NCBI GenBank assembly: GCA_964520325.1
Contig: CAZFOB010000001.1
Coordinates: 193,556-257,555 of the forward strand
DNA: 64,000 nucleotides
Reading direction: 5' to 3'
Origin: an uncultured Actinomycetes bacterium
Lineage (GTDB): Bacteria; Actinomycetota; JAICYB01
Both the position numbers and the translations under genes were made by a program. Positions within the stretch are counted from its first letter, which is position 1. Each line of letters opens with the position of its first letter. A model generated the notes under the pieces. It was given only the letters and a program-made list of their open reading frames with translations. It had not been told where the DNA came from and did no database searches. Positions 2,438 through 31,061 of this stretch are shown here, one piece after another.

Positions 2438-2840
2438 GTCTGCGTTCGGCCCAGTTCTTCTCGGTCTCGCTCAGTCGCACTGCATAGAGCAGTCCGGACG
2501 GGAGGTTCTGATCCAAACGGTCCCAGAAGGCGCACACGAGATTCTCGGTCGACGGGATCACACCGCGGAGCCAATCGACGTCGACGTTCAGGTTCCGGTG
2601 ATCGACGTCCTCGAGGATCTGCTTGCGCACAACTTTCGCAAGCTCACTCAGGTCGTAGAGATAACCGGTCTCCGGATCCACGTCGCCGCGCAACGACACC
2701 TCGAGCACGTAGTTGTGGCCGTGGCCGTTGGGGTTGGCACACTTGCCGAAGATCTCGCGGTTGCGCTCGTCGGTGAAGGCCTCGTTGGACAGCGTGTGCC
2801 CGGCGCTGAACGTCTCGCGGCGCGTGATCACGACGGACAT
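2430..2840 (-). CDS. 6-pyruvoyl-tetrahydropterin synthase (PTPS-I, eukaryote/cyanobacteria type; QueD/PTPS superfamily)
   Basis: 136 aa. FSAGHTL...FGKCANPNGHGHNYVLEV...DPETGYLYDLSELA...DHRNLNVDV...STENLVCAFWDRL aligns almost motif-for-motif with mammalian PTPS (CNNPNGHGHNY, His triad, Glu/Asp) rather than E. coli QueD (CGRLHGHSF). First gene of a four-gene minus-strand operon. Confidence 0.9.
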   Translation of the reverse strand: MSVVITRRETFSAGHTLSNEAFTDERNREIFGKCANPNGHGHNYVLEVSLRGDVDPETGYLYDLSELAKVVRKQILEDVDHRNLNVDVDWLRGVIPSTENLVCAFWDRLDQNLPSGLLYAVRLSETEKNWAERRRD

Positions 2841-2883
2841 GGACCAAGGTTATCCGGCCCCCTCGGTCGGGTATCGCCAGTCC

Positions 2884-3084
2884 ATGGCGACCAAGCGCGT
2901 GCCGATCAAGAAGCCGAGGGAGCCCGTCGCCGCTCGTGTCTGTCCGAACTGCGCGTACATCTCCGAGGAACCGGTGGCACGGTGTCCGCGCTGCAACGCC
3001 GCCATGGCCATCGAGCACGACGACAACGCTGTCGATAAGGCCGGAGCCGACTCGTTCCCGGCGAGCGATCCCCCGCAGCACTGA
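2884..3084 (+). CDS. Small zinc-ribbon protein (two CxxC pairs), function unknown
   Basis: 66 aa MATKRVPIKKPREPVAARVCPNCAYISEEPVARCPRCNAAMAIEH... with CPNC...CPRC. The longer track ORF (2713-3084) would overlap PTPS, so the internal ATG at 2884 was chosen. Confidence 0.45.
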   Translation: MATKRVPIKKPREPVAARVCPNCAYISEEPVARCPRCNAAMAIEHDDNAVDKAGADSFPASDPPQH

Positions 3085-3140
3085 AGACCGGCGCGGTAGC
3101 GTCGCGGCGAGCGCCACTCCGAGCGGAGACAGAACGACGC

Positions 3141-3524
3141 TTACTTGCGTTTCAGGTCGAGCTGCCTGGAGAGCATCTTCGGCGCCACCATGCGGTAGCT
3201 CTCCTCGACGAGCTCGGCGATCTCGTCCCAGTCCTGTTCGACGTCGAGGTACACGCCGATCCACCCCTTCGAGCCGACGTAATCGGGGACGTAGAACCGA
3301 TCGGGGGCCGAGCCGACGAGTGCCTGCTGCGCGCCGGGACGTCCCTTGATCTGCATCGAGGGGCGACCCACCTGCGTAGTGCCGCAGAAGATCTTGTCCC
3401 GCACTCGATACGCCGGAGAGGTGTGTCCGCCGAAGGGTTTGTCGACCGCTTCGGGCAAACGCAGGCAGACCTTCCGCAGGCGGGCGTACTTGCTCAAGGG
3501 AACCAGGGTGTAGCGCTTGGGCAC
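3141..3524 (-). CDS. MmcQ/YjbR family DNA-binding protein
   Basis: 127 aa. PFGGHTSPAYRVRDKIFC...GWIGVYLD pattern typical of the MmcQ/YjbR (DUF419) fold. Confidence 0.7.
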   Translation of the reverse strand: MPKRYTLVPLSKYARLRKVCLRLPEAVDKPFGGHTSPAYRVRDKIFCGTTQVGRPSMQIKGRPGAQQALVGSAPDRFYVPDYVGSKGWIGVYLDVEQDWDEIAELVEESYRMVAPKMLSRQLDLKRK

Positions 3525-3564
3525 GCCTCGACGCTACCGCGCCGGCGCCGTCGGGCTGACGTCG

Positions 3565-3783
3565 TCAGCTTGAGATGCGGCGCGGCCAGGCGATAAGAGC
3601 CAGGCCGGCGATCGCAACCACGGCACCGATCAGCACCCAGGTGGAGCTGTTCGTCATGAACGACTCGCTCACGATGACGCCGATGCCCTGAAAGAACCAG
3701 ACCCCGCCCAAAAGGACGAGCACGGCGCCGATGATCCTCCTGACCATATAACGATGGTCGCGGTGTTCCTTACGGCCGGTCAA
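3565..3783 (-). CDS. Small hydrophobic membrane protein (2 TM), hypothetical
   Basis: 72 aa with two hydrophobic helices (IIGAVLVLLGGVWFF, WVLIGAVVAIAGLALIAW). No recognised family. Confidence 0.4.
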   Translation of the reverse strand: MTGRKEHRDHRYMVRRIIGAVLVLLGGVWFFQGIGVIVSESFMTNSSTWVLIGAVVAIAGLALIAWPRRISS

Positions 3784-3800
3784 GGTGTCATCCTTCGGAC

Positions 3801-5360
3801 GTGAACGGCGAACGCCGGATCGGCGCGCTGATCGGTCTTCTGAGCGCGACGGTGGCGGTCGCCGTCGCGCACCTCTTGGCCGCTTTCATCGACGAGGCCG
3901 CCTCGCCCATCACGGCCGTCGGCGCGGCGGTCATCGATATGTCGCCGGCTGCGGTCAAAGAGTTCGCGATCAGCACCTTCGGTGCCCGCGACAAGCTTGC
4001 ACTCGTGATCGGGATCTCCGTCCTGCTCGCGGCTTTCGCAGCCGGGATGGGTGCGCTGGCGATGCGCCGTCGCTTCGTCGCCTATGCCACTCTCGGCGCG
4101 TTCGGGGCGCTCGGCGTCCTCGCTGCGATGACACGTCCTGCCGCGGGCACATTGTCCGCCCTCCCAACGATCGCCGGGATCGCGGTCGCGCTGCTGTCCA
4201 TCCGCGTCTTGTTCGCGATGACCGAGCCCCGTGGATCGCACGATGCGCCCGCTCCATCGGCAGCGCCGGTCAACGACGGTCCAAGAGAGCCGGGCTTCGA
4301 CCGCCGGCGGTTCCTGATCGCCGGCGCCGCATTCGGTGGCACGGCCGCAGCCGCGGGGATCGCAAGTCGTTTCGCGAGTGCCGCGACGCGACGGACGGTG
4401 ACCTCGCGCGCGGCACTGACGATCCCTAAGCCGTCCGATGTCGCAGCGGCAGCGTCGGGGACGGATCTCCGCATCGCCGGTCTCAGCCCCTTCCGCACAC
4501 CCAACTCGACGTTCTACCGGGTGGACACCGCGCTCTTCGTCCCGAAGATCGACGCGCGAGACTGGCGACTGCGGATCCACGGCATGGTCGATCGTGAGAT
4601 CGAGATCGACATGGAGCAACTGCTGTCGCGGCCCCTCATCGAACGCGACATCACGCTCGCGTGCGTCAGCAACGAGGTGGGTGGCTCGTACATCGGCAAC
4701 GCCAGGTGGATCGGCGCTCCGCTGAAACCGATCCTGGACGAGGCCGGCGTCCACGAGGGCGCCGACCAACTCGTGTCGCGGTCCGCCGATGGGTTCACCG
4801 CGGGCACCCCGACCGCCGACCTGATGGACGGACGCGACGCGATGCTCGCGGTCGCGATGAACGGTGAGCCGCTTCCGCTCAAGCATGGGTTCCCAGTACG
4901 TATGGTCGTGCCCGGGCTGTACGGCTACGTCTCAGCGACGAAGTGGGTGGTGGACATGAAGCTCACCACGTTCGACGCGTTCGACGCGTACTGGATCTCG
5001 CGCGGTTGGGCGCGGCGGGCACCGATCAAAACCATGTCGCGGATCGATACACCGCGCTCGTCACGGGAACTCGCGGCGGGTAACGTCGCGATCGCCGGGG
5101 TCGCTTGGGCGCAGACCAAGGGGATCGCGCGGGTCGAGGTGCGGATCGACGACGGGCCATGGGAGCGCGCTGAGCTCGCGGGCGAAGACACGATCGACAC
5201 GTGGCGGCAATGGGTCTACCGATGGAAGGCAACGCCGGGGTCGCACAGGATCGCCGTCCGCGCGACGGATAAGACCGGCTACACGCAAACTCCAAGGAAA
5301 GCACCACCCATCCCGGACGGGGCGACCGGCTGGCACACGATCTACGCAACGGTTGTGTAG
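3801..5360 (+). CDS. Molybdopterin-dependent oxidoreductase, sulfite-oxidase fold, with N-terminal 4-TM membrane domain and internal twin-arginine motif
   Basis: 519 aa. N-terminal hydrophobic helices, then DRRRFLIAGAAFGG (Tat-like), then Moco-binding core (LACVSNEVGGSYIGNARWIGAPLKPILDEAG; MVVPGLYGYVSATKWV) and a C-terminal dimerisation domain. Confidence 0.85.
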   Translation: MNGERRIGALIGLLSATVAVAVAHLLAAFIDEAASPITAVGAAVIDMSPAAVKEFAISTFGARDKLALVIGISVLLAAFAAGMGALAMRRRFVAYATLGAFGALGVLAAMTRPAAGTLSALPTIAGIAVALLSIRVLFAMTEPRGSHDAPAPSAAPVNDGPREPGFDRRRFLIAGAAFGGTAAAAGIASRFASAATRRTVTSRAALTIPKPSDVAAAASGTDLRIAGLSPFRTPNSTFYRVDTALFVPKIDARDWRLRIHGMVDREIEIDMEQLLSRPLIERDITLACVSNEVGGSYIGNARWIGAPLKPILDEAGVHEGADQLVSRSADGFTAGTPTADLMDGRDAMLAVAMNGEPLPLKHGFPVRMVVPGLYGYVSATKWVVDMKLTTFDAFDAYWISRGWARRAPIKTMSRIDTPRSSRELAAGNVAIAGVAWAQTKGIARVEVRIDDGPWERAELAGEDTIDTWRQWVYRWKATPGSHRIAVRATDKTGYTQTPRKAPPIPDGATGWHTIYATVV

Positions 5361-5501
5361 GCGGTCCGAACGCCGAACCAACGAGCCCGGCCCATCGTTA
5401 AGCTTCGCAGGACTACTCGATCAGCTCCTATTTCCTGCGGCGGGGAAGAACTCATCCAAACCGATAACTATCGCGCCGCCGCGGCGGCTGCCGCCGTTGC
5501 C

Positions 5502-7109
5502 ATGCTGGCCACTGTGTTCACGGTCGTCGACGCTCGGGCCGACAACCAACCGGTGGGCGGCGTCGTCACGGAGCAAGACCATCGCTGCGGTCGCAAGGAT
5601 CTCCCCGAGACCGGCATCCAAGGGGACGTGCCTCGCGCCGACCAGACGTCAGGACGCGCCGAGCAGGGCTACAACTGCGGCCTCGCCCTGGTGGGCCACA
5701 CAACGCTCGGCGCCCAGAAACGCCAGGCCACAGGCAACGCGAACATGGCGTGGGCAGGCAACTGCGCCTACGTTGCCGGTCCGGGTGCCGTCTTCGGCCA
5801 GCCCTCCCCCGAGCCCGGGCACGGCGTGGCCGTGGTCGACGTGTCGGACCCGGCGCACCCGCGACACGTCCGCACACTCCGCACGTCCGGCTCGATCGCG
5901 GCCTCCGAGACCCTGCACGCAGTCGAGACGGGCAAGCGATCCGTCCTCGTCGTCGGGCAGTACGGCAATCAGGCCGGCGGCAACAAGCCGATGGACGTCT
6001 ACGACGTTTCGGACTGCGCAAAGCCGCGGCTGTTGGAAACCTTCCGTTGGCCGGAGAACATCCACAACCTCACGATCTCCGGCAACGGACGCTACGTCTT
6101 CGCCACGCAGCCTCTTCAGGTTGCGGACATCGGCCCGTTGTTCGACGCGGACAAGCGCACTCGTACGAAATACCTCGGCAATCTCGAGGCCGCTACGCCG
6201 GGTCTGCCGTTCGCCGTTGGCCCCTCCGCTGATCTCGACGATGCTCTCCCGGAGTCCCTGAGAGAGGCCGACCACAACCGCTACTTGAGCCACGAAGCGT
6301 GGCCCACCTCCGACGGAACGAAGGTGTACCTCGGCGGCCAGCTCCCGGTGTTCGAGGCCTTCACGATCCTCGACATCCGCAAGTGGCTCGAGCGCGACGC
6401 CAAGGGGCGGCCCGCGGGCCCGCCGAAGGTGCTCAGCCAACGCAGCGGCCGGGGCCACTCGGTGCGCACAGCAACGATCGGCGGCCGGCCATACGTGCTC
6501 CACTCCGAGGAGAGCGTGTTCGGGCCGACGTGGGGCTGCTTGCCCGAATCACTCAACCCCTTCGCCGGCCCGGCCCAGCCCTGGCTGACCGACATCAGCG
6601 ATGAGCGGAAGCCGGTGCTGGTCTCGCAATTCGGTCTGGAGATCAACGATCCGGAGAACTGCCCCGCGCAGATCACATCGAACGTGAGGACCTCGGTCCA
6701 CTACCACGACGTCGACAACCCAAAGGACACGACGTTCGTCATGGCGTCGATGTGGAACTCAGGTGTACGACTCTTCGACGTGCGAAAGCCGTCGCGGCCG
6801 GCAGAGGTCGCGTACTTCAACCCCGGCGACGTCGACGCAACAAACGGGGTCACGCTCGATCACGCCTGGGGACACGTCCGCTTCGTGCCGGAGACCGGCC
6901 ACGTTTGGTTCGCCACCTCCGCCGGTGGCTTCTGGGTCGTCGAGATCGAGCCGCAGGTACGCCGGCGGCTCGGTCTGTATGCGAAGGGTCCCAGGCTCGA
7001 GACGCGTCACCCGATGGGGCGCCCCGCACGCCGGGGCGTGAACGTCGCAGCAGTTGCCACGGTCTTTGATGTCAGCCCGATGTACTGCACGGTTGGTCGC
7101 CTGGGCTGA
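5502..7109 (+). CDS. LVIVD-repeat beta-propeller protein (probably exported)
   Basis: 535 aa. Repeated LxVxDVSDPxxPR units (HGVAVVDVSDPAHPRHV; MDVYDVSDCAKPRLLET) characteristic of PF08309 LVIVD repeats. Start uncertain (no earlier in-frame ATG/GTG). Confidence 0.75.
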   Translation: MLATVFTVVDARADNQPVGGVVTEQDHRCGRKDLPETGIQGDVPRADQTSGRAEQGYNCGLALVGHTTLGAQKRQATGNANMAWAGNCAYVAGPGAVFGQPSPEPGHGVAVVDVSDPAHPRHVRTLRTSGSIAASETLHAVETGKRSVLVVGQYGNQAGGNKPMDVYDVSDCAKPRLLETFRWPENIHNLTISGNGRYVFATQPLQVADIGPLFDADKRTRTKYLGNLEAATPGLPFAVGPSADLDDALPESLREADHNRYLSHEAWPTSDGTKVYLGGQLPVFEAFTILDIRKWLERDAKGRPAGPPKVLSQRSGRGHSVRTATIGGRPYVLHSEESVFGPTWGCLPESLNPFAGPAQPWLTDISDERKPVLVSQFGLEINDPENCPAQITSNVRTSVHYHDVDNPKDTTFVMASMWNSGVRLFDVRKPSRPAEVAYFNPGDVDATNGVTLDHAWGHVRFVPETGHVWFATSAGGFWVVEIEPQVRRRLGLYAKGPRLETRHPMGRPARRGVNVAAVATVFDVSPMYCTVGRLG

Positions 7110-9880: not shown

Positions 9881-10466
9881 TGCGGGCCGGCCCGACACAC
9901 GCACGGCGATCCTCGAGTCGGCTCGCGTCCTGTTCGAAGAGCAGGGCTACTTCGGCGCGGCACTCGAAGCCGTCGGGAAGTTGGCCGGCGTCTCCCGGCA
10001 GGCGATCTATCTCCACTTCGCCTCGAAGGCCGACCTCCTCACCGAGCTGCATCTGCACATCTACGAGACGGACGTCGTCCCCGCACTCGAGCGTCATCCC
10101 ATATGGACGGCGCCGACTGCCCTCGAAGCGCTCGACGCAACCATCGCGGTGGACGCCGAGGTCGCGTCGAAGATCTGGAGGATCCATGAGGCCCTGGTCG
10201 TGGCGCGCCGGCATCATCCCGAGGTCGACGAGACGCTGCGGCCGCGAGAGGAGGAGCGTTACCAAGAGCTGGTGCGCCTGGGTCGCTGGCTCAAGAAGGA
10301 GGGTGAACTACCGCCGAGGACGAGCGCCGGGACCTTCGCCGACATGTTGTGGGGCCTGGGTTCCCTCGGCACCTTCCAGAACCTCGTCATCGAGCGCGGC
10401 TGGTCGATCGACCGGTGGACGAGATGGGTGCGCAACACGATCCGGGCCCAACTCATCGCTACGTAG
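9861..10466 (+). CDS. TetR/AcrR family transcriptional regulator
   Basis: 201 aa. N-terminal HTH RTAILESARVLFEEQGYFGAALEAVGKLAGVSRQAIYLHFASKADLL typical of TetR. Confidence 0.9.
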   Translation: MLDSMSSAGRPDTRTAILESARVLFEEQGYFGAALEAVGKLAGVSRQAIYLHFASKADLLTELHLHIYETDVVPALERHPIWTAPTALEALDATIAVDAEVASKIWRIHEALVVARRHHPEVDETLRPREEERYQELVRLGRWLKKEGELPPRTSAGTFADMLWGLGSLGTFQNLVIERGWSIDRWTRWVRNTIRAQLIAT

Positions 10467-10630
10467 CTTGCTGTTCGTCCGATCTGTTGACCTCCGAGGA
10501 CACTATCTGAACGCTCTGACCAGGAGGAATGCGACGCTGCTTCTGAGACCTGGTCGTTTTGGGGGCAAGCGCCTGGGAGCTGCGCAAAACTGCACCCGCC
10601 CGGGTCGTGACGATCGCGGCGCATCGCCGG

Positions 10631-13372
10631 TCAGTGTGTCTTCAGCGCGTACACGATGGCGTCCTCCTCGGACATCGCGCGGCCTTCGTCTCTGCAGCGG
10701 CGGGCCGTGTCGCGATCGAGCGCTTCTCGGAGGAGAGCGACGTAGTGCTTGTAGATGGCATAGGTGTGTCCCGACGGAATGTTCCGCCCAGCATCGATGG
10801 TCCGCGCGCGAACCCAGGCGAACAAACGCGAGGAGCGCTGGTGATCGCCGGAAACGTAGGCGATGCCTGCATAGCCCGCGATGAGTTGCTCCACGGCCCA
10901 GGCCGACCGCGACTCGCCACGCCCGAAGATCTCGAGCTGCTCGGCCAGCAGATCGAGTGCGCGGGCTGGCTGGCCGGCGCCGGCTATCGCTACCAAGGCT
11001 GCGGTCGTCGCTACCTCGAGGAACGGCCTCCGCGTTGCGCGGACGAAATCGATGTATCGCGTGGCCGCCTCGAGAGCCCGCTCGTTGTCGCCGAGGATGT
11101 GTGATGTTGTCGCGATGAACCCCCACGAGCCGACGTCCCTTAGGTTGAGCGCAACGGCCGCTTCGCTGGCCTCTGCTGCTTTGTGGATGTCTCCCAGGGT
11201 GAGTTCCACGAGTGCTCGGACCGTCAGGACGTGCGACCGCGAACTGGCGGAGAAGTGCTCCGTGAGCTCGTCGGCTCGGTCGAGATCTGATCGAGCTGCC
11301 GTCGCAAGCTCAGCGTCACCGATCCATTGGGAACGCACGGCGCGGTTGATCGCCCTCTGTGCGAGGGCCCGGAGCAACGGGATGCTGGGCTCGGTGCCCC
11401 CCGCTGCGACGGCACGTTCCGCGAGATCCAGCGCCTTGACCGGGTCCGACCACCCAAAGCCGGCCAGGTTCGCGGCAGAGGAAAGCGCGGCGGCGCGCTC
11501 TGCTGGTGTGAGTTCAAGATCCTCGGGACGCGCCTTCGTCAGCCAGCTATAGCCCTCGCGCGCAAGACCGGAAGCGACCCACAGATTCCCGACGCGCGCG
11601 GCCATCGCGACGACGACGTCCCGCCTGCCCTGGGCCTCGGAGAACTCCAGAGCAGCGCGCAGATTGGAAAGCTCAGAAGAGAACATGGAGCGCGAGGTGG
11701 ACAGGGGAAGAAAGACGTCCTCCCAGTCGACCGACTCTCCAAAGGCCTTGAACCAGTCTCGATGGCGCGACCTGAACTCATCGGCTTCGCCGGCTGCACG
11801 CAGCTGTTCCGAGGCGTAGAGGCGCACGGTCTCAAGCAACCGGTAGCGCGCCTCGGTCCCTGCGTCGTTCGCATCGACAAGCGACTTCGCTACAAGCGAA
11901 GCGAGCAGGTCGAGGACGTCGTCCTCCAACAAGTCCTCTCCCGAGCAGATCCCCTCGGCTGCGGGGATCGTGAAGGAGCCGGGGAAGACCGCAAGCCGGC
12001 GGAGCAGGACCTGTTCATCGGTCGACAGGAGCTCGTAGCTCCAGTCAAGTGTCGCTTGCAACGTTTGCTGGCGTTGGACGCGACCGCGTCCTCCGGTGAG
12101 GAGGCGGAACCCTTCCTTGAGGCGCTCGGCGATGTCGTGGGGCGGCAGGTGTGAGATGCGGGCGGCAGCGAACTCGATGGCGAGCGGGATGCCGTCGAGG
12201 CGCCGGCAGATGTCGGTGACAGCAGCGGCGTTGTCGGGCGTCAGCTCGAAGTTGGGTCGGACGGCCTTGGCCCGAGCTACGAAAAGACCGACCGCTTCAG
12301 ATGTCTGAGCGCCCTCAGCGTCGGCGGGCAAAGAAAGCGATGGGATCTGCCAGAGCTGTTCGCCTTGCACCGCCAATCCCTCTCTGCTCGTCGCCAGCAC
12401 CGTGACGCGCGGACAGTCGGCGAGGATGCGGTCGGCGATCTCGGCGCACCCGTCGAGCATGTGCTCACAGTTGTCGAGGATGACCAGACAGTCGCGTTGC
12501 GAAAGGAATCCGAGCAGGAGTGCATCCGAAGGCCCGGCTGGAGTCGCCCCGGTGCTGGTGTCGGCGGCGAGCGGAAGTCCGACGGCGCCTGCGATAGCGG
12601 GAACGATCGCGTCGACCGTCGAGATCGGCCCGAGGTCAACGAAGAACACGCCGTCTGGGTTTGTGTCGAGCGATTCGGCTCCGACTTGCAAGGCGAGGCG
12701 TGTCTTCCCACACCCACCGATGCCGGTCAACGTGACGAGCCGATGACCTTCGAGAAGGCTACGCACGTCGGCGATCTCGCGTTCACGACCGACGAATGTC
12801 GAGCGCTGCAACGGGAGGTTGTGGGTGAAGTGCTCGAGCGAGCGCAACGCCGGGAAGTCGTTCGGAAGTTGCTCGCCTGTGACCTGGAATAGCCGCTGTG
12901 CCTCCTCGAGATCTTTGAGGCGATGTGCCCCCAAGTCCTTCAGCTGTGTATCCGTCCCGATGAGATCCGCCGTCGTCTGCGAGATCAGGATCTGTCCGCC
13001 GTGACCGGCGTCGCACACGCGTTTCGCCCGGTGCACGTCGTGACCGATGTAGTCGCCCTCCCGGACGACTGCGTCGCCTGTATGCAGCCCCATGCGCACA
13101 CGAAGCTGTTGTGAAGTGAGGGCGCGCTGTCCGTCAATGGCCGCTGCAACGGCATCCTCGGCTCGTGCGAATGCAACGAAGAATGCGTCTCCCTCAGTCC
13201 CGACCTCATGGCCGGCGTGGGCGCTGAAGGCTTGTCTTAGAAGCTCGCGATGCGCTCCGAGCGCGTCGGCGTACCGCTCGTTCCCCATCGCCCCGACCGT
13301 CTGCGTTGACCGCTCAATGTCGGTGAACAGGAAAGTGACAGTGCCGGTCGGTAGCTCTGGGTTGCGCGCCAT
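10631..13372 (-). CDS. Adenylate/guanylate cyclase domain protein fused to a STAND (NB-ARC-like) ATPase and TPR repeats
   Basis: 913 aa. N-terminal class III cyclase motifs (VTFLFTDIERST...GDAFFVAF...HTGDAVVREGDYIGHDVHRAKR), Walker A LTGIGGCGKTRLA, and a long C-terminal helical repeat region. Confidence 0.85.
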   Translation of the reverse strand: MARNPELPTGTVTFLFTDIERSTQTVGAMGNERYADALGAHRELLRQAFSAHAGHEVGTEGDAFFVAFARAEDAVAAAIDGQRALTSQQLRVRMGLHTGDAVVREGDYIGHDVHRAKRVCDAGHGGQILISQTTADLIGTDTQLKDLGAHRLKDLEEAQRLFQVTGEQLPNDFPALRSLEHFTHNLPLQRSTFVGREREIADVRSLLEGHRLVTLTGIGGCGKTRLALQVGAESLDTNPDGVFFVDLGPISTVDAIVPAIAGAVGLPLAADTSTGATPAGPSDALLLGFLSQRDCLVILDNCEHMLDGCAEIADRILADCPRVTVLATSREGLAVQGEQLWQIPSLSLPADAEGAQTSEAVGLFVARAKAVRPNFELTPDNAAAVTDICRRLDGIPLAIEFAAARISHLPPHDIAERLKEGFRLLTGGRGRVQRQQTLQATLDWSYELLSTDEQVLLRRLAVFPGSFTIPAAEGICSGEDLLEDDVLDLLASLVAKSLVDANDAGTEARYRLLETVRLYASEQLRAAGEADEFRSRHRDWFKAFGESVDWEDVFLPLSTSRSMFSSELSNLRAALEFSEAQGRRDVVVAMAARVGNLWVASGLAREGYSWLTKARPEDLELTPAERAAALSSAANLAGFGWSDPVKALDLAERAVAAGGTEPSIPLLRALAQRAINRAVRSQWIGDAELATAARSDLDRADELTEHFSASSRSHVLTVRALVELTLGDIHKAAEASEAAVALNLRDVGSWGFIATTSHILGDNERALEAATRYIDFVRATRRPFLEVATTAALVAIAGAGQPARALDLLAEQLEIFGRGESRSAWAVEQLIAGYAGIAYVSGDHQRSSRLFAWVRARTIDAGRNIPSGHTYAIYKHYVALLREALDRDTARRCRDEGRAMSEEDAIVYALKTH

Positions 13373-24127: not shown

Positions 24128-25051
24128 ATGCAACCGTCTCGCCCCGGCCCCCTCGTGTTCATGGCGTTCGCCTTCGTGGTGATCGTCGGCGGATCGAACT
24201 TCGTCGCGGTCAGGCTGAGCAACCGAGAACTGCCGCCGTTCTACGGCGCGGGAGTGCGCTTTGCGCTGGCGTCCGTGCTGCTCCTCGCGATCGTCGCTGT
24301 CACGCGGATCCCTCTGCCGCGCGGCCGCGGGCTGGTTGGCGCGGTCATCTTCGGCCTCCTCAACTTCTTCGCCGCGTACGCCTTGTTCTACTGGGGACTC
24401 CAGCGGGTGCCGGCCGCGCTCGGCGGCGTGGTGTTCGGCACAGTGCCGCTGCTCACCTTCGCCCTCGCCGTGGTCCAGCGTCAGGAACGCTTCCGGTGGC
24501 GCGCGCTGCTCGGTGCAGCGATCGCGATCGCCGGCGTAGTGGTCATGGTCGGCGCGCCCGGGAATGCCGACGTCGGATTCGTGTACATCCTCGCCGTCGT
24601 CGCCTCTGCCGTCGGCGCAGCCGAAGCGGCGGTCGTCATCAAGCACTTCCCGGCGGTCCATCCCATCGCACTCAACACAGTCGCGATGGGCGTTGGCACC
24701 ATCTTCCTCCTCGTGCTCTCGGCGCTCGCGGGTGAGCCCTGGACCGTGCCCCGAGATCCGGCGACATGGTGGGCGCTCGCGTACCTGATCCCGGTCGGCT
24801 CGGTCGGGTTGTTCGTCGGCTACGTCTATGTCGTCCAGATGTGGACGGCGTCGGGCGCTTCGTATCAGTTCGTCTTGTTCCCGGCCGTGACTGCGTTGAC
24901 GGGCGCGCTGATCGTCGACGAGCCGCTGAGCATCTCGATCGCCATCGGCGGAGCGCTCGCTGTGATCGGAACCTACGTCGGTGCACTCGCGGGCGGCGAT
25001 TCCGAGGATCCGGAGGCTGCGGAAGCTCGAGATACGCTACTGAATCAGTAG
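24128..25051 (+). CDS. EamA/DMT-family transporter (10 TM)
   Basis: 307 aa. Two EamA repeats, hydrophobic throughout. Confidence 0.8.
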   Translation: MQPSRPGPLVFMAFAFVVIVGGSNFVAVRLSNRELPPFYGAGVRFALASVLLLAIVAVTRIPLPRGRGLVGAVIFGLLNFFAAYALFYWGLQRVPAALGGVVFGTVPLLTFALAVVQRQERFRWRALLGAAIAIAGVVVMVGAPGNADVGFVYILAVVASAVGAAEAAVVIKHFPAVHPIALNTVAMGVGTIFLLVLSALAGEPWTVPRDPATWWALAYLIPVGSVGLFVGYVYVVQMWTASGASYQFVLFPAVTALTGALIVDEPLSISIAIGGALAVIGTYVGALAGGDSEDPEAAEARDTLLNQ

Positions 25052-25064
25052 CGCGAGCGCCGGC

Positions 25065-26093
25065 ATGCGCACCTTGCCGGTTTGCGTACGCGGTATCTCC
25101 TCCACGACGAACACCTGCTTCGGCGCTGGGACCCCGGAGTGCGCGAGGTCGCTCCGGCCGAACCCGTACGCTGACCACGTGGCGCGGGCGGCCGGACGAT
25201 CCCAGACGATCACCCTGGCCGCGTTCCTCGTGCTCTGTGTCCTTGTCGGCGGCAACCTCGTCGGCGTCCGGTTCAGCAACCGGGAGCTCGCGCCCTTCTG
25301 GGGTGCAGCGCTGCGCTTCGCGCTCGCAACGCTCTTGCTCGCCGTCGCTGCCGCCGTCCTGCGTCTTCGGCTCCCGCGAGGACGTCGGTTCGGTGGAGCG
25401 TTGCTCTTCGGGATCCTCAGCTTCGCGCTCTTCTTCGCCTTCACCTACTGGGCCCTGCAGGAGCTCCCGACCGCGATCGCGGGGACGATCTTCGCATCGA
25501 TCCCACTCCTCACCTTCTTCCTCGCGGTCGCGCACCGCCAGGAGCGGTTCCGGTGGCGCAGCCTCGCGGGCGGCGTCATCGCGGTCGCCGGCATCGCGGT
25601 GATGGTGCGCGCTCCGGCGAATGCCGACGTCCCGCTCGTGAACCTCGGCGCGATGTTCCTCGCTGCGGTGTGCGCGGCCGAGGCCGGCATCGTCGGACGG
25701 CACTTCCGCGCCGTCCACCCGATCGTGATGAACGCGATCGGCATGGGCGTCGGGACGGTGTTCCTCGCCGCGCTCTCCCTCGTCGCGAGCGAATCACGGG
25801 TGTTCCCGTCGCGTGAAGCAACGATCTGGAGCTTCGTGTACCTGGTCACGCTCGGATCGTGCGGTGTTTTCCTGCTCTACCTCTTCGTGCTCCGGACGTG
25901 GACGGCGTCGGCGGCCTCCTACGAGTTCGTGATCGCTCCGCTCGTCGCGGCCGGACTCGCGGCCTGGCTGCTTGACGAGCCGCTGACGACGCAGGTGGCA
26001 GTGGGCGGTGCGATCGTCCTCGCCGGTGTCTATGTCGGCGCGTTGCGCAGCACAGGTGCCGGTGAACCCTCGGTCGTCAGCGAACCAGACTGA
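25065..26093 (+). CDS. EamA/DMT-family transporter, tandem paralogue
   Basis: 342 aa, clearly paralogous to the preceding gene (LVGVRFSNRELAPFWGAALRFALA vs FVAVRLSNRELPPFYGAGVRFALA). Confidence 0.8.
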   Translation: MRTLPVCVRGISSTTNTCFGAGTPECARSLRPNPYADHVARAAGRSQTITLAAFLVLCVLVGGNLVGVRFSNRELAPFWGAALRFALATLLLAVAAAVLRLRLPRGRRFGGALLFGILSFALFFAFTYWALQELPTAIAGTIFASIPLLTFFLAVAHRQERFRWRSLAGGVIAVAGIAVMVRAPANADVPLVNLGAMFLAAVCAAEAGIVGRHFRAVHPIVMNAIGMGVGTVFLAALSLVASESRVFPSREATIWSFVYLVTLGSCGVFLLYLFVLRTWTASAASYEFVIAPLVAAGLAAWLLDEPLTTQVAVGGAIVLAGVYVGALRSTGAGEPSVVSEPD

Positions 26094-26444
26094 CGAGTTC
26101 GGTCCGGCGTACCTTCCCGGTCTGCGTTCGCCCGGTCTGCGTTCGCGGCAACGCGTCCACAACGAACACCTGCTTCGGCGCGTGGGAGCCGGGGAGGCGC
26201 TCGTGAGCGAAAGCCTTCACCGCATCCGTGTCGGCGCCGCGCAGACGCGCTGACCCCACTCGTCGTCCGGCACACCGAAGATTGCGGCTTCGTCCACGTC
26301 CGGATGTTCAGTGAGAACGCGTTCGACCTCGGCCGGATAGACATTCACGCCTCCCGCCATGCATGGAATAGGGCGCCCCGATGTGGGATGCACTTTCCTC
26401 GGCCCTCGACCACTAGGGCTGTGCTGCTCGTCGATGCAGACCAT
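26077..26444 (-). pseudogene. Decayed 3' fragment of an acyl-CoA synthetase (AMP-binding C-terminal domain), frameshifted, paralogous to the 3' end of the gene at 27931-29277
   Basis: Two ORF pieces in different frames (26217-26444 [40 protein letters not shown]; 26077-26259 ERLPGSHAPKQVFVVDALPRTQTGRTQTGKVRR). Together they match residues about 360-448 of the downstream ligase. About 100 bp near 26146-26200 is nearly identical, the rest about 80% identical. No N-terminal part exists. Confidence 0.7.
26116..26145. repeat. 15-bp perfect tandem duplication (CCCGGTCTGCGTTCG x2) inside the ligase pseudogene (RTQTG RTQTG)
   Basis: Direct reading of 26116-26145; absent from the intact paralogue at about 27968. 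Confidence 0.9.
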
Positions 26445-26445
26445 T

Positions 26446-27891
26446 TTAGTTCGGTGCGATGTTCTGGTTGACCCTGAAGAAGTTGTCAGGGTCGTACTTC
26501 CGCTTCAATGCTTTTAGGCGGTCGTACTTCTCGGCGCCGTAGGACTGGCGGACCCGCTCGTCGCCTTCCTCCATCAGGAAGTTCACGAAGACGTTCTGGT
26601 GGTGCGGCTCGAGCGCAGACCACAGCCCGCGCGCCCACTCACGCTCGACGTCGAACCCCTCGCCCGTCCTGGTGATCCCGATGGCGTTGACCGTGTGGCC
26701 GGCGTCGCGCCCGGCGAACGCGGCTTCGTCCTCGCCCGCCCGCGCCACGGCACCCCCGAGGTGATAGATCGAGAAAACGGTAAGTGGCGACTCGATCCGT
26801 AGGCCGTGATCGGCCATCGTGTCGACAACCGCGTCGTTGAGCACCCGGACGTTGCAGGAACGGATGTAGTACCACCAGCCGTGCGGGAACGCCGCGTCGA
26901 GGCTCGCCTGGTGAGCGACGTACGGTTTCGGCTCGCACATGTCGAGCAAGGGCGAGCCGAACCGTCTGAGCGGCTTCAACACCTCCTCGCCTTCGTCGAC
27001 CGGCCCCGCGTAGCAGCAGCCGACCATGACGGCATGCTTGCCGTGGAACTCCGCGGGCACGACCGGGGACGGCATCACCCGGCGGTGGGTGACGATCGTG
27101 GTCAGCTCATCGGGCACCTGGGTGATCCAGTCGCGATAGAACCGCAGCACCTGTGGCGAGTCCTCCATCGCCCAGATGATGGGCCCGGCGAGCACCGTCG
27201 GCCCGACCGGGTTGAGACGAAACTCGAACTCGGTCACGATGCCGAAGTTCCCACCACCGCCTCGCACGCCCCAGAACAGGTCGGCGTTCTCCGTCTTCGA
27301 CGCCTTCACGAACTCTCCGTCCGCCGTGATCAGATCAACCGACAGAAGCTGGTCGATCGTCAGTCCGTACTTGCGCTCGAGCCAGCCGATCCCTCCACCG
27401 AGCGTGAGCCCGGCGAGCCCCGTATGAGTGACGATCCCTGCCGGGATCGCGAGCCCGAACGCCTGCGTTTCGCGGTCGAGCTCGCCGAGCAGGACGCCGG
27501 CCTGTACCCTCGCTGTCCGTCCCTGTGGATCAACCCGAGTCCCGCGCATCAGGCTCATGTCGATGACGATGCCGTCGTCGCAGACAGACAGGCCTGGATA
27601 GCTGTGACCCCCGCTTCGCAGCGCCACCTCGAGCGCGCTCTCACGAGCGAAGCGCACAGCGCCGATCACATCGGCGACGCCGGCGCAGCGCGCGATCAGC
27701 GCCGGCCGTCGATCGATCGAGCCGTTCCAGATCTTGCAGTGGTCCTGGAAATCTGCATCGGATCGGAGGACCAATTGCCCGCGGAATCGCTCCCCGAGCG
27801 CGTTCAACGCGACCGGATCGAACTCGGGCTCGCTGGCGATCGCAGTCACGTCCCGTGTGCCGTCATCGGGTTCTGGGTCGCAGCCTCCCAC
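26446..27891 (-). CDS. FAD-linked oxidoreductase, PCMH-type FAD-binding domain with C-terminal berberine-bridge-enzyme-like (BBE) domain
   Basis: 481 aa. FAD-binding region ([21 protein letters not shown]) and C-terminal [16 protein letters not shown] signature. Confidence 0.85.
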
Positions 27892-27930
27892 AATGGGTTG
27901 GGCCCTGTCACACCGCCCGTTCGGCCGACC

Positions 27931-29277
27931 TCAGCGCGTCAGGGAGACGAGCTCGGACCGCCGTACCTTCCCGGTCTGAGTTCGCGGCAACGCGTCCACA
28001 ACGAACACCTGCTTCGGCGCGTGGGAGCCGGGGAGCCGCTCACGCGCGAACGCACGAACCTTTTCCGTGTCCGCGTCGCCGGTGATCGCTGCGCACACGC
28101 GCTGCCCCCAGTCGTCGTCCGGGACGCCGAACACCGCGGCTTCGACGACGTCCGGGTGCTCGAGGAGGACGCGCTCGACCTCCGCCGGATAGACGTTGAC
28201 GCCACCCGAGATGATGAGATCCTCACGGCGCCCATCGATGAAGAGGTAACCGTCGGCGTCGAGGCGGCCGAGGTCGCCGACCGAGAACTCGTCGCCGCGC
28301 CACGCGAGAGCGGATCTTTCGGGGTCGTTCCAGTACTCAAAGCGTGCGAAAGACGGCGCTTGCGCCCAGATGGTTCCGTCGTCGTCGACGCTCAGCCGTC
28401 TGCCGGTTCGAGCACGTCCAACCGTTCCCGGACGTTGCCGCCACTCGGCCGACGAGCAGAACGTGAACTGGCCCTCGGTCGATCCGTAGAACTCGAAGAG
28501 GTTGTCCGCGCCGAACGCGTCGATCGCTCGTCGCTTGAGGACGTCCGGACACGGCTCGCCGGCGTGGAGGATCCGTCGTGCGTCTGGCGCGGCGAAGTCT
28601 TCACGCGCGAGGAGTCGGCGCAGATGCGTCGGCACGAGGAACGCTCCCGCCACGCGCTCATCGACGAACGCCCGGGCGATCTCAGCCGCGTCGAACTGCT
28701 CGAAGACGAGTACGCGGGCACCAGCGAGTAGTGCCGACGTCGTGATGCGCAAGGGGGCCGAGTGATACAGCGGCGAGCACACCAGATACGTCTCGCCGGG
28801 TCGGGCGTCCCACAACTCGGCCTCGTCTGCCGCAAGCGCGCGCGCGTCCCGTTCGGACATCACGCCGGACCAGACGCCTTTCGCCAGTCCGGTGGTTCCG
28901 GACGTGCAGTGCATCGGACGTCCGAGCGGCACGTCGGCGAGGTCGACGGGCGAGCCATCGCCGGGCTCGTCGTCGACGACGAGCGAGGGCTGCGCATCGG
29001 TGACGATCCGATCGCGCTCGGCCCCCGACAGGTGGAGATTGACCGGAACGGGAACAGCACCCGTCCGCAGCGCGCCGAGGACCAGCGGGACATACCAGGG
29101 CTCGTTGCCGGCCACGATCGCCACCCGATCTCCGGTCCTGACCCCGTTGGCCGAAAGCCATCCCGCTGCGCGCCGCGCGGCTGTCTCGACCTGCTGGTCC
29201 TCGAGGACGAACACGCCTCGAAGCATAGATTCGCCGCGGACGGGGCAGGTCTGAGAGAATCGGGCGCTATCCAGCAC
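27931..29277 (-). CDS. AMP-dependent synthetase/ligase (short acyl/aryl-CoA synthetase family)
   Basis: 448 aa. HCTSGTTGLAKGV AMP-binding motif, YGSTEG, C-terminal GKVRR. An alternative start at 29226 (MLRGVFVLED) is possible. Confidence 0.85.
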   Translation of the reverse strand: MLDSARFSQTCPVRGESMLRGVFVLEDQQVETAARRAAGWLSANGVRTGDRVAIVAGNEPWYVPLVLGALRTGAVPVPVNLHLSGAERDRIVTDAQPSLVVDDEPGDGSPVDLADVPLGRPMHCTSGTTGLAKGVWSGVMSERDARALAADEAELWDARPGETYLVCSPLYHSAPLRITTSALLAGARVLVFEQFDAAEIARAFVDERVAGAFLVPTHLRRLLAREDFAAPDARRILHAGEPCPDVLKRRAIDAFGADNLFEFYGSTEGQFTFCSSAEWRQRPGTVGRARTGRRLSVDDDGTIWAQAPSFARFEYWNDPERSALAWRGDEFSVGDLGRLDADGYLFIDGRREDLIISGGVNVYPAEVERVLLEHPDVVEAAVFGVPDDDWGQRVCAAITGDADTEKVRAFARERLPGSHAPKQVFVVDALPRTQTGKVRRSELVSLTR

Positions 29278-29318: not shown

Positions 29319-30098
29319 GTGATGAACATCGTGGTCACGGTCAAGCAGATCCCCGACCCGAACCTCGCCCCCGCACTCGACGGCAACCGGCTCAAGCGCG
29401 AAGGCGTTGCCGGCGTCCTCGATCCGGGAGACGAGTTCGGCGTCGAAGCAGGACTTCAGATCGCTGCCGGTCACAGCGGAGAGGTGACGGTGGTCTCCAT
29501 GGGGCCGGCGCAGGCGATGGAAGCGGTACGCAAGGCGCTCTCGATGGGCGCCGCCAAAGGCATGCTCATCTCGGACGACGGCCTGCAGGGCGCGGACGCT
29601 CTCACCACCGCCAAGGCGCTCGCGGCAGCGATCACGCGCAACGGTTTCGATCTCGTGATCTGCGGCGTCGAGTCGACGGACGGATACACGGGCGTGGTGC
29701 CGCAGATGGTCGCGGCGCTTCTGGACGTTCCGATGCTGACGTTCGCGAAGTCGATCGACATCGCCGATGGACCGGACGGCAAGACCGCCAAGATCAACCG
29801 ACAGACCGAGAAGGGCTACGACGTGGTCGAATGCCCACTCCCCTGCGTCATCACGGTGACCGCGGGTGTGAACGAGCCGCGCTACCCGTCGTTCAAGGGC
29901 ATCGTCGAAGCCAAGAAGAAGCCGCTCGAGCAACTGACGTTGGCCGAGCTCGAGAACCTCACCATCGACGGTGCCGCTTCGCAGTCGGTGGACGGGATCA
30001 ACGACGCCCCGCAGCGCGGGGCAGGCGAGATCATCGAGGACGACGGCACGGGAGCTGCGAAGATCGCGGACTTCCTCACACAAGCAAAGGTGATCTAA
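29319..30098 (+). CDS. etfB: Electron transfer flavoprotein beta subunit
   Basis: 259 aa. MMNIVVTVKQIPDPN...VSMGPAQA typical EtfB/FixA. Confidence 0.9.
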   Translation: MMNIVVTVKQIPDPNLAPALDGNRLKREGVAGVLDPGDEFGVEAGLQIAAGHSGEVTVVSMGPAQAMEAVRKALSMGAAKGMLISDDGLQGADALTTAKALAAAITRNGFDLVICGVESTDGYTGVVPQMVAALLDVPMLTFAKSIDIADGPDGKTAKINRQTEKGYDVVECPLPCVITVTAGVNEPRYPSFKGIVEAKKKPLEQLTLAELENLTIDGAASQSVDGINDAPQRGAGEIIEDDGTGAAKIADFLTQAKVI

Positions 30099-31061
30099 GT
30101 GCCAACAATATGGGTATTCGCAGAGTGTGAATCAGACGGCAAGGTCGCGAGCAGCGCGCTCGAGAACCTCGCCAAGGCTCGTGAGATCGGCGATGCCGAA
30201 GCTGTCGTGCTCGGACCGGGAGCGACCGCGGCCGCGGCGACCCTCGGCGAGCACGGCGCGAAGAAGGTGTACCTGAGCGACGACTCCGTCTTCACCGACT
30301 ACGTCGCACAGCCGTCCGCCTACACGTTGTGGAAGCTCGCCGAGCAACATCAGCCCGACATGATCGTGTTCGGGATGGACTACGACTCCCGCGACATCGC
30401 CGCGCGCGTGGCCGCCAGCATCGGCTCGACGATCATGGGCAACGTCACCGACATCCTCGGTGCCGACAAGGCACAGACGCAGATCTTCGGTGGCACCAAG
30501 ATCGTCGACGTCGCACTCGGTGGTCCGAGCCCGAAGATCGTCATCACACGTCCGAAGTCCTTCGAGCCGAGCGCCGTCGGTGGAACCGCCGAAACAGAGC
30601 AGGTGGCGGTGGACATCCCGGACGGCGAGAAGAAGGCCAAGCGCATCGAACGACACGAGGAAGAAGCCGCGGGCGTGAAGCTCGAGGACGCGAAGGTCGT
30701 CATCTCAGGCGGACGGGGGCTTCTCGACCCGAAGAACTTCGAGCTTCTCGATCAGGTCAGCAAAGCGATCGCAAACTCAGCCGTCGGCGCAACCCGCGCG
30801 GTTGTCGATGCGGGTTGGGTCCCCTACGCGATGCAGGTCGGCCAGACCGGAAAGACGGTCAAGCCCGAGGTGTACATCGCGGCCGGGATCTCTGGCGCGT
30901 CGCAGCACCAGGTCGGCATGAAGGACTCGAAACGGATCATCGCGATCAACAAGGACGCCGAGGCGCCGATCTTCCAGATCTCCGATCTCGGCATCGTCGG
31001 CGACACGATGAAGGTGCTCCCGGCGCTGATCGAGGAGCTCAACAAGCGCAAGGGTGGATAA
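30099..31061 (+). CDS. etfA: Electron transfer flavoprotein alpha subunit
   Basis: 320 aa. GTG start 1 nt after the etfB stop; C-terminal FAD-binding motif [17 protein letters not shown]. Confidence 0.9.

Follow-up and report, generated by a model that had tools for sequence, protein, structure and literature searches.

Direct repeats around an oxidase gene in an uncultured actinobacterium: a probable displaced 3′ end of an acyl-CoA ligase gene

How does a single oxidase gene come to lie between two copies of the same ligase sequence? The question is raised by a locus in a 64,000-nucleotide stretch of DNA (the window; contig CAZFOB010000001.1, positions 193,556 to 257,555) from an uncultured Actinomycetes bacterium, actinobacterial DNA with a G+C content of 65%. 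A gene for a BBE-like FAD-linked oxidase is flanked here by direct repeats: on one side the 3′ end of an intact AMP-binding acyl-CoA ligase gene, on the other a frameshifted fragment that we call relic A (26077–26361, minus strand). The first-pass annotation of the window read the fragment as a decayed duplicate of the adjoining ligase, left either by an ancestral second ligase that had lost its 5′ two-thirds or by an insertion of the oxidase region, with gene conversion at the 3′ end. That observation of direct repeats around a single gene is real, with corrected coordinates; the decayed-duplicate reading is wrong in direction, and the ideas of insertion and conversion are right. We think it quite likely that relic A is the 3′ end of the resident ligase gene, displaced when a module consisting of a ligase 3′ end, a spacer and the oxidase gene was imported.

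On the minus strand, the order is ligase, spacer, oxidase, an 83-nt filler and relic A, which extends from the A8 motif to the stop codon. At its stop region it shares 17 nt (26077–26093) with the end of the convergent EamA2 gene, as the first reading had seen. Pairwise alignment shows relic A to be colinear with the terminal ~285 nt of the ligase gene (copy B, 27931–28213), well beyond a short low-complexity motif; the homology had been placed at 26094–26444 with a length of ~350 bp, of which the colinearity stands and the extent shrinks to ~285 nt at 26077–26361. With the ligase C-terminus as the tblastn query, relic A is matched in two frames (E values of 8e-22 and 2e-21), and the Pfam domain AMP-binding_C (PF13193) is likewise found in two frames, with E = 2.5e-9 in frame 1 (profile positions 1–31) and 9e-4 in frame 2 (profile positions 43–75). 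The translations contain both the A8 hinge motif (GGxNVYPxEVE) and the A10 lysine motif PRTxxGKxxR. Upstream of 26361, neither Pfam nor an alignment of the ligase against the filler revealed an AMP-binding N-domain, and relic A has neither the N-terminal adenylation domain nor the open frame of a functional ligase. Since the N-domain is missing and a 13-nt deletion shifts the frame, relic A is a remnant of an ANL-superfamily ligase and not a gene. The deletion lies between 26235 and 26236 (opposite copy B 28075–28087) and is the sole frameshift in relic A; the 12-nt indel and the frameshift that had been listed separately are this one event. The private 15-nt tandem duplication described earlier consists of two copies of CCCGGTCTGCGTTCG (26116–26145, minus strand), is in frame, and doubles RTQTG directly ahead of the conserved GKVRR. 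A 75-codon open reading frame (ORF; 26217–26444, minus strand) starts with an ATG one base past the oxidase TAA (TAAAATG) and continues through the filler into the first frame of relic A, a geometry that looks like accidental translational coupling.

The substitutions separating the two copies are not those of a duplicate in decay. Outside a near-identical patch near the 3′ end, relic A and the ligase differ with a synonymous divergence (dS) of 1.18 and a nonsynonymous divergence (dN) of 0.117, a ratio (omega) of 0.10 that is equal to or below that of functional orthologs over the same region; the site numbers per segment are small throughout (53–92 codons). In the 5′ part of relic A, 27 of the 37 mismatches to the ligase fall at third codon positions. 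A three-way comparison of the 5′ 160 nt with the ligase and with L168, a 2.3-kb contig from another lineage, gives 27 private differences for the fragment, 5 for the ligase and 7 for L168. With 12 private differences between the two of them, the ligase copy and L168 form a group that leaves the fragment outside, and the two copies in the window are not each other's closest relatives over their full length. Of the 27 sites private to the fragment, 21 are third positions (p = 3e-6), and 21 carry a base that another relative has as well. Neutral decay with a GC-to-AT mutational bias was considered as a source of the third-position excess and is ruled out, with p = 7e-5 even against an expectation of 40%. 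Saturated synonymous sites combined with a dN/dS of 0.10 indicate that relic A was a functional gene end until recently; judged by this substitution pattern, it appears to have kept working through most of the period in which the two copies diverged.

If relic A is the old end, the present end of the ligase should carry the mark of a newcomer, and a breakpoint is found inside the intact gene. This gene (P0001; 27931–29226, minus strand; 431 aa, with a maximal ORF to 29277) appears to be a chimera of ~1,000 nt of resident 5′ sequence and ~285 nt of imported 3′ sequence. Between window and L168, dS is 1.30 in the ligase upstream of 28260, 0.21 at and below 28210, and 0.36 in the oxidase, and third-position identity is 33/66 upstream against 76/92 downstream (Fisher p = 2e-5). 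Upstream of ~28260, the window ligase is no nearer to L168 than to other relatives, and is nearer to the contigs L161 and L162. The zone of homologous crossover is placed at 28210–28260 (minus strand) by a sliding comparison of the window ligase with L168 and with L161–L167, and it coincides with the start of relic A homology. A change of relatedness inside the anchor gene is what homology-facilitated illegitimate recombination (HFIR) or 3′-end displacement would leave behind. The present 3′ end, copy B (27931–28215, minus strand), has a low dS to L168 and would have been imported with the oxidase. The surroundings are only distantly related: the 3′ part of the L168 EamA gene is 91% identical to that of L163 and only 72% identical to EamA1 of the window, an EamA_b gene. 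Because the backbones are distant and a low-dS stretch is shared, the segment from the ligase A8 motif to the stop codon, the spacer and the oxidase form a module common to both. On these comparisons the newcomers would be the oxidase and the 3′ end that the ligase has today, not relic A. The L168 ligase (positions 1–544 of that contig) is itself mosaic, L163/L164-like upstream and window-like in its last ~200 nt, and the module of ligase tail and oxidase seems to have entered the L168 lineage by recombination too, without a relic.

The proposed cargo, the oxidase gene (26446–27849, minus strand; Pfam FAD_binding_4 and BBE), has its closest homologue in P0121 (90% amino acid identity), which lies in a syntenic 23-kb contig in the order ligase and oxidase, both convergent with an EamA_b gene. 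This contig, of 23,091 bp and from JGI sample 3300041965, carries the ligase at 2630–3940, the oxidase at 4025–5419 and EamA at 5427–6332. The same order of ligase and oxidase facing EamA is found in L168. A plausible donor arrangement therefore exists in another lineage, and window positions 28390–26447 are 87.8% identical to L168 over 1,945 nt, including a ligase–oxidase spacer (27850–27930, minus strand) that is homologous to the 84-nt spacer of L168. The 80 GTDB-representative loci with related oxidases include none with a ligase or EamA gene adjoining, and a private insertion without a donor was a first idea from these loci; it was overturned by the 90% homologue in the same slot, found in a larger protein database. 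The closest GTDB-representative oxidase locus (L071, positions 10001–11459; 83% nucleotide identity) is recovered by tblastn as three pieces in different frames, and may contain frameshift errors or be a pseudogene in this metagenome-assembled genome (MAG). Alignment to homologues of 464–467 aa makes the GTG at 27849 the likely start of the window oxidase (467 aa), and the maximal ORF (GTG at 27891, 481 aa) is probably overlong; the position of the L168 oxidase ATG is occupied by ATC in the window, with the in-frame GTG at 27849 two codons upstream. No terminator was predicted between ligase and oxidase, and terminator, promoter and Rfam scans of 24–30 kb returned nothing relevant; with no terminator-like site between the two genes, their co-transcription is plausible. 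Insertion by a mobile element or as an integron cassette was also considered and rejected: the neighbours are RelA, GNAT, Metallophos, EamA, ETF, YbjN-like and Liv-type genes, with no transposase or integrase among them, the oxidase is flanked by no meaningful inverted repeats, and there is no Rfam match.

What stood at this position before can be read from syntenic relatives. Contigs L161–L167 were reached via ligase homologues, and two further contigs (that of P0021 and the 23-kb contig with P0121) were available as gene tables only. The relatives share the order of two ETF genes divergent from a ligase, a variable slot, and a convergent group of one or two EamA genes, Metallophos and GNAT that is followed by a divergent RelA gene. 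Each of the nine syntenic relatives has one ligase, which is also the outcome of the search for an intact second ligase at this site that had been proposed in the first reading. In seven syntenic relatives, the ligase stands beside EamA or other cargo and the oxidase is absent between them, in line with the earlier idea that the oxidase region was inserted. The slot is empty in L161 (68 nt) and in L162, where ligase and EamA share 29 nt at their ends, an overlap like that of relic A with EamA2. Elsewhere it holds EamA_a, a Lactamase_B-fold gene plus a TetR gene, a BsuPI-like gene of 176–179 aa, or the oxidase; a lipoprotein-like gene of 244–261 aa, 64% identical between L165 and L166, is a further cargo. 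This variation, with the empty slots of L161 and L162, indicates a ligase directly convergent with EamA as the ancestral state, and relic A sits at the ancestral position of the ligase end. No ligase-tail relics were found in the slots of L161–L166, and the relatives recovered in a metagenome scan with the ligase reach at most 63% identity and show no synteny.

The second junction of the insert is of a different kind. The similarity of the window to L168 ends precisely with the stop codon of the oxidase, and between this stop and relic A lies the filler (S7, 26362–26445), on the side of the presumed illegitimate join. Local alignments of its 83 nt (26362–26444) with the ligase score no better than shuffled sequence, and no match was found among the fetched loci, in the EamA tails, behind related oxidases or elsewhere in the window. 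A non-homologous junction thus stands opposite the homologous one, as in HFIR. A 10-nt palindrome, CCATGCATGG, lies on the boundary of relic A and filler (26357–26366) and may have been left by the illegitimate join, whose exact placement would require the donor sequence.

Relic A itself is not uniform. The first-pass annotation had described a gradient of identity; we find a sharply bounded mosaic. Its 5′ part (26197–26358, against ligase 28036–28210) is identical to the ligase at 125 of 162 positions (77%, near the ~80% first estimated), with 27 of 54 third positions conserved. It is followed by a patch of ~105 nt of donor type, that is, like copy B and L168 (26092–26196, minus strand, against ligase 27946–28035), with 86 of 90 positions and 27 of 30 third positions identical; this is the ~100 bp of near-identity reported before and includes a perfect run of 56 nt. 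The last 15 nt (~26077–26091, against ligase 27931–27945) are diverged again (9/15). The contrast in third positions between 5′ part and patch is significant (Fisher p = 2.7e-4), as is the length of the perfect run (run-length permutation p = 1.7e-4). In other ortholog pairs, the patch tract shows ordinary synonymous divergence, and its low divergence here is therefore not due to sequence constraint. In the three-way comparison, the patch (82 sites identical) has 2 private differences in the fragment, 2 in the ligase and 4 in L168, and the last 15 nt have 6, 0 and 1, respectively. A sharply bounded segment of low divergence with diverged homologous sequence on either side has the form of a gene-conversion tract, and conversion at the 3′ end, as first suggested, gains statistical support from the third-position contrast, the run test and the three-way comparison. 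Relic A would be the 3′ end of the resident allele, in which donor-type sequence has replaced a patch of ~105 nt. Within this patch, fragment, ligase 3′ end and L168 are about equidistant, which puts the conversion close in time to the transfer; we infer that it took place at the transfer or soon after.

These observations can be joined into the following history. In the ancestor, the ETF genes would have been divergent from a ligase that was itself convergent with EamA2, with the stop regions of ligase and EamA2 overlapping. DNA from another Thermoleophilia-like lineage, arranged as ligase followed by oxidase, would then have entered by one homologous crossover or strand invasion where the ligase gene encodes its conserved A8 motif (~28210–28260) and by one illegitimate join (26361/26362) that led back, via the 83-nt filler, to this motif in the resident ligase; one-ended homologous repair plus end-joining is the mechanism that we infer. 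The net insertion would amount to ~1.85 kb, made up of the donor ligase from A8 to stop, the spacer, the oxidase and 83 nt. The ligase would have been kept intact as a chimera, with the oxidase directly downstream and probably co-transcribed, and the resident segment from A8 to stop would have been shifted downstream as a dead remnant. A ~105-nt patch of this remnant would have been converted to donor sequence during the event or soon afterwards, and the 13-nt deletion and the 15-nt duplication would have been gained later.

Other histories can produce direct repeats around a gene. Two long-functional tandem ligases, with the oxidase replacing the 5′ two-thirds of the downstream one, would account for a relic A that was under purifying selection and is deeply diverged from the intact copy; the similar tails of the two copies (ELVSLVR and ELVSLTR before the stop) could then be due to earlier concerted evolution. 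This version of the ancestral second ligase is quite unlikely, as all nine syntenic relatives have a single ligase, and as it leaves unexplained both why the intact ligase turns L168-like exactly where relic A starts and why the tail ELVS(L/M)TR is common to L168. A Campbell-type integration, in which a circularised donor carrying the ligase 3′ part and the oxidase inserts by a single crossover in a true insertion-duplication, also yields direct repeats flanking the insert, and the near-identical patch could be its crossover or heteroduplex zone. It predicts a relic with a donor-type 5′ part, however, whereas the 5′ 160 nt of relic A are neither copy B-like nor L168-like, with their 27 fragment-only sites; the model is workable only with a crossover at the extreme 5′ edge, where it becomes nearly the displacement history that we favour, and we regard it as unlikely. 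The geometry and the 96% identity over ~100 nt would suit a recent duplication of the ligase 3′ end within the genome (e.g. a long target duplication), with one copy decaying neutrally. Synonymous saturation outside the patch, where half of the third positions differ, with few amino acid changes and an omega of 0.10, makes this extremely improbable, since neutral decay spreads over codon positions and does not concentrate at the third as seen here. A chimera of two co-occurring strains made in metagenome assembly is conceivable for a MAG-type source, P0001 being on a 318-kb NCBI contig, and for a locus with a 56-nt identical run. Both junctions (the A8 motif with its 83-nt filler and the oxidase stop) lie away from the shared run, however, and a switch of strain would give a hybrid gene rather than a truncated fragment with unique filler and indels of its own; this explanation is very unlikely.

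Several points nevertheless weigh against displacement of the resident ligase end by an imported module. No close relative of the window lineage is among the sampled loci to show the state before insertion. The 5′ part of relic A has a synonymous difference (pS) of ~0.6 to all relatives, against 0.4–0.5 for typical resident genes, over 53 codons only. Downstream of the oxidase, the window has the 83-nt filler where L168 has 7 nt followed by EamA, and the junctions are known from the assembly alone. The donor lineage is unsampled, and L168 is 88% identical, not ~100%; as L168 is moreover itself mosaic, it is the relic alone that gives the transfer its direction. The crossover, finally, can be placed only within ~28100–28260, a region conserved in all relatives.

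The flanking genes hold what may be traces of an earlier event. ETF-beta and ETF-alpha genes (29319–31061) are divergent from the ligase. EamA2, an a-type EamA transporter gene (25179–26093, plus strand), is convergent with relic A, and its real start is the GTG at 25179, not the ATG at 25065. Four nucleotides upstream of this start ends a 34-nt orphan 3′ tail of a b-type EamA gene (25141–25174, plus strand; ending in REVAPAEPVR before the stop), which is colinear with the junction of EamA_b stop and EamA_a start in L161 and L164 and matches the L163 EamA tail at 27 of 30 nt (counted by eye). EamA1 now ends in a different tail, DPEAAEARDTLLNQ. Convergent with EamA1 lies a second, shorter ligase-tail relic, relic C (25037–25140, minus strand; tail APKQVFVVEEIPRTQTGKVRMPALALLIQ), which has a 1-nt deletion and is matched by tblastn at E = 4e-7. 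It is about equidistant (75–85% over 60 nt) from relic A, the intact ligase and all relatives, and has a distinct C-terminal tail, MPALALLIQ. A perfect 15-nt palindrome, CTACTGAATCAGTAG (25037–25051; CTACTGA-A-TCAGTAG), supplies the TAG stops of both EamA1 and relic C, and the two frames both end in LL(N/I)Q. The most economical explanation would be an older event of the same kind, by which EamA2 was imported and the tail of the ligase resident at that time ended up behind EamA1; alternatively, a small patch may have been inserted into the tail of EamA1.

HFIR has been described in Acinetobacter, Pseudomonas stutzeri, Streptococcus pneumoniae and Escherichia coli conjugation (PMC3240628; references in PMC5361080). 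The present locus resembles it in having a homologous anchor at one end (the ligase A8 region), a non-homologous join at the other and a cargo gene trapped beside the anchor. It differs in that there is a net insertion without loss of resident DNA and the resident gene end is kept as a repeat, and in that the event is deduced from sequence alone, in an uncultured actinobacterial lineage that is Thermoleophilia/Solirubrobacterales-like. Displacement of 3′ ends with orphan 3′ fragments is known from Rhs, contact-dependent inhibition (CDI) and type VI secretion system (T6SS) effector loci (Kirchberger et al., 2017, PMC5361080), where the rhs case is credited to Jackson et al. (2009), and HFIR has been invoked for it in T6SS and Rhs loci (PMC5361080). 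There too a new 3′ end arrives with a downstream gene and the old end is left downstream as an orphan, and repeated events can stack orphans, as relics A and C may represent here. Unlike in those systems, the gene is a metabolic acyl-CoA ligase with a conserved rather than polymorphic C-terminal domain, and the cargo is an oxidase or transporter and not an immunity gene, with no toxin/immunity-like selective logic evident. With ordinary pseudogene fragments and ectopic conversion tracts, the locus shares a truncated, frameshifted fragment and a short tract homogenised with the functional copy; there is no difference of substance from ordinary gene remnants, and only the origin, by displacement and not duplication, is unusual. 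All of these are known kinds of event (a gene remnant, a scar of HFIR or 3′ displacement, a conversion tract) in a well-preserved example, and nothing suggests a new molecular system.

A wider reading, which we hold to be unlikely, is that the conserved 3′ third of the ligase serves in Thermoleophilia-like soil actinobacteria as a recurrent anchor for swapping modules of ligase tail and cargo, with orphan tails (relics A and C) stacking as in Rhs and T6SS loci and with the imported C-terminal subdomain possibly matched to its cargo. If true, the cargo would include the oxidase, EamA_a, the metallo-beta-lactamase-fold gene with TetR and the lipoprotein-like genes, and an example of such matching might be a variant ligase C-domain and the BBE-like oxidase, co-adapted and acting on a common acyl substrate. 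Recombination across the 56-nt identical run could still delete the oxidase, the product being a ligase with a 5-residue duplication beside the catalytic lysine motif. For annotation, the locus is a caution: direct repeats that flank a gene may have arisen otherwise than by duplication, and an intact gene can be a chimera. Through one crossover within a conserved gene and one non-homologous join, the recipient's own gene end would be preserved as a datable fossil, and the locus would thus be a clean natural record of the entry of an accessory gene into a conserved neighbourhood in uncultured soil actinobacteria.

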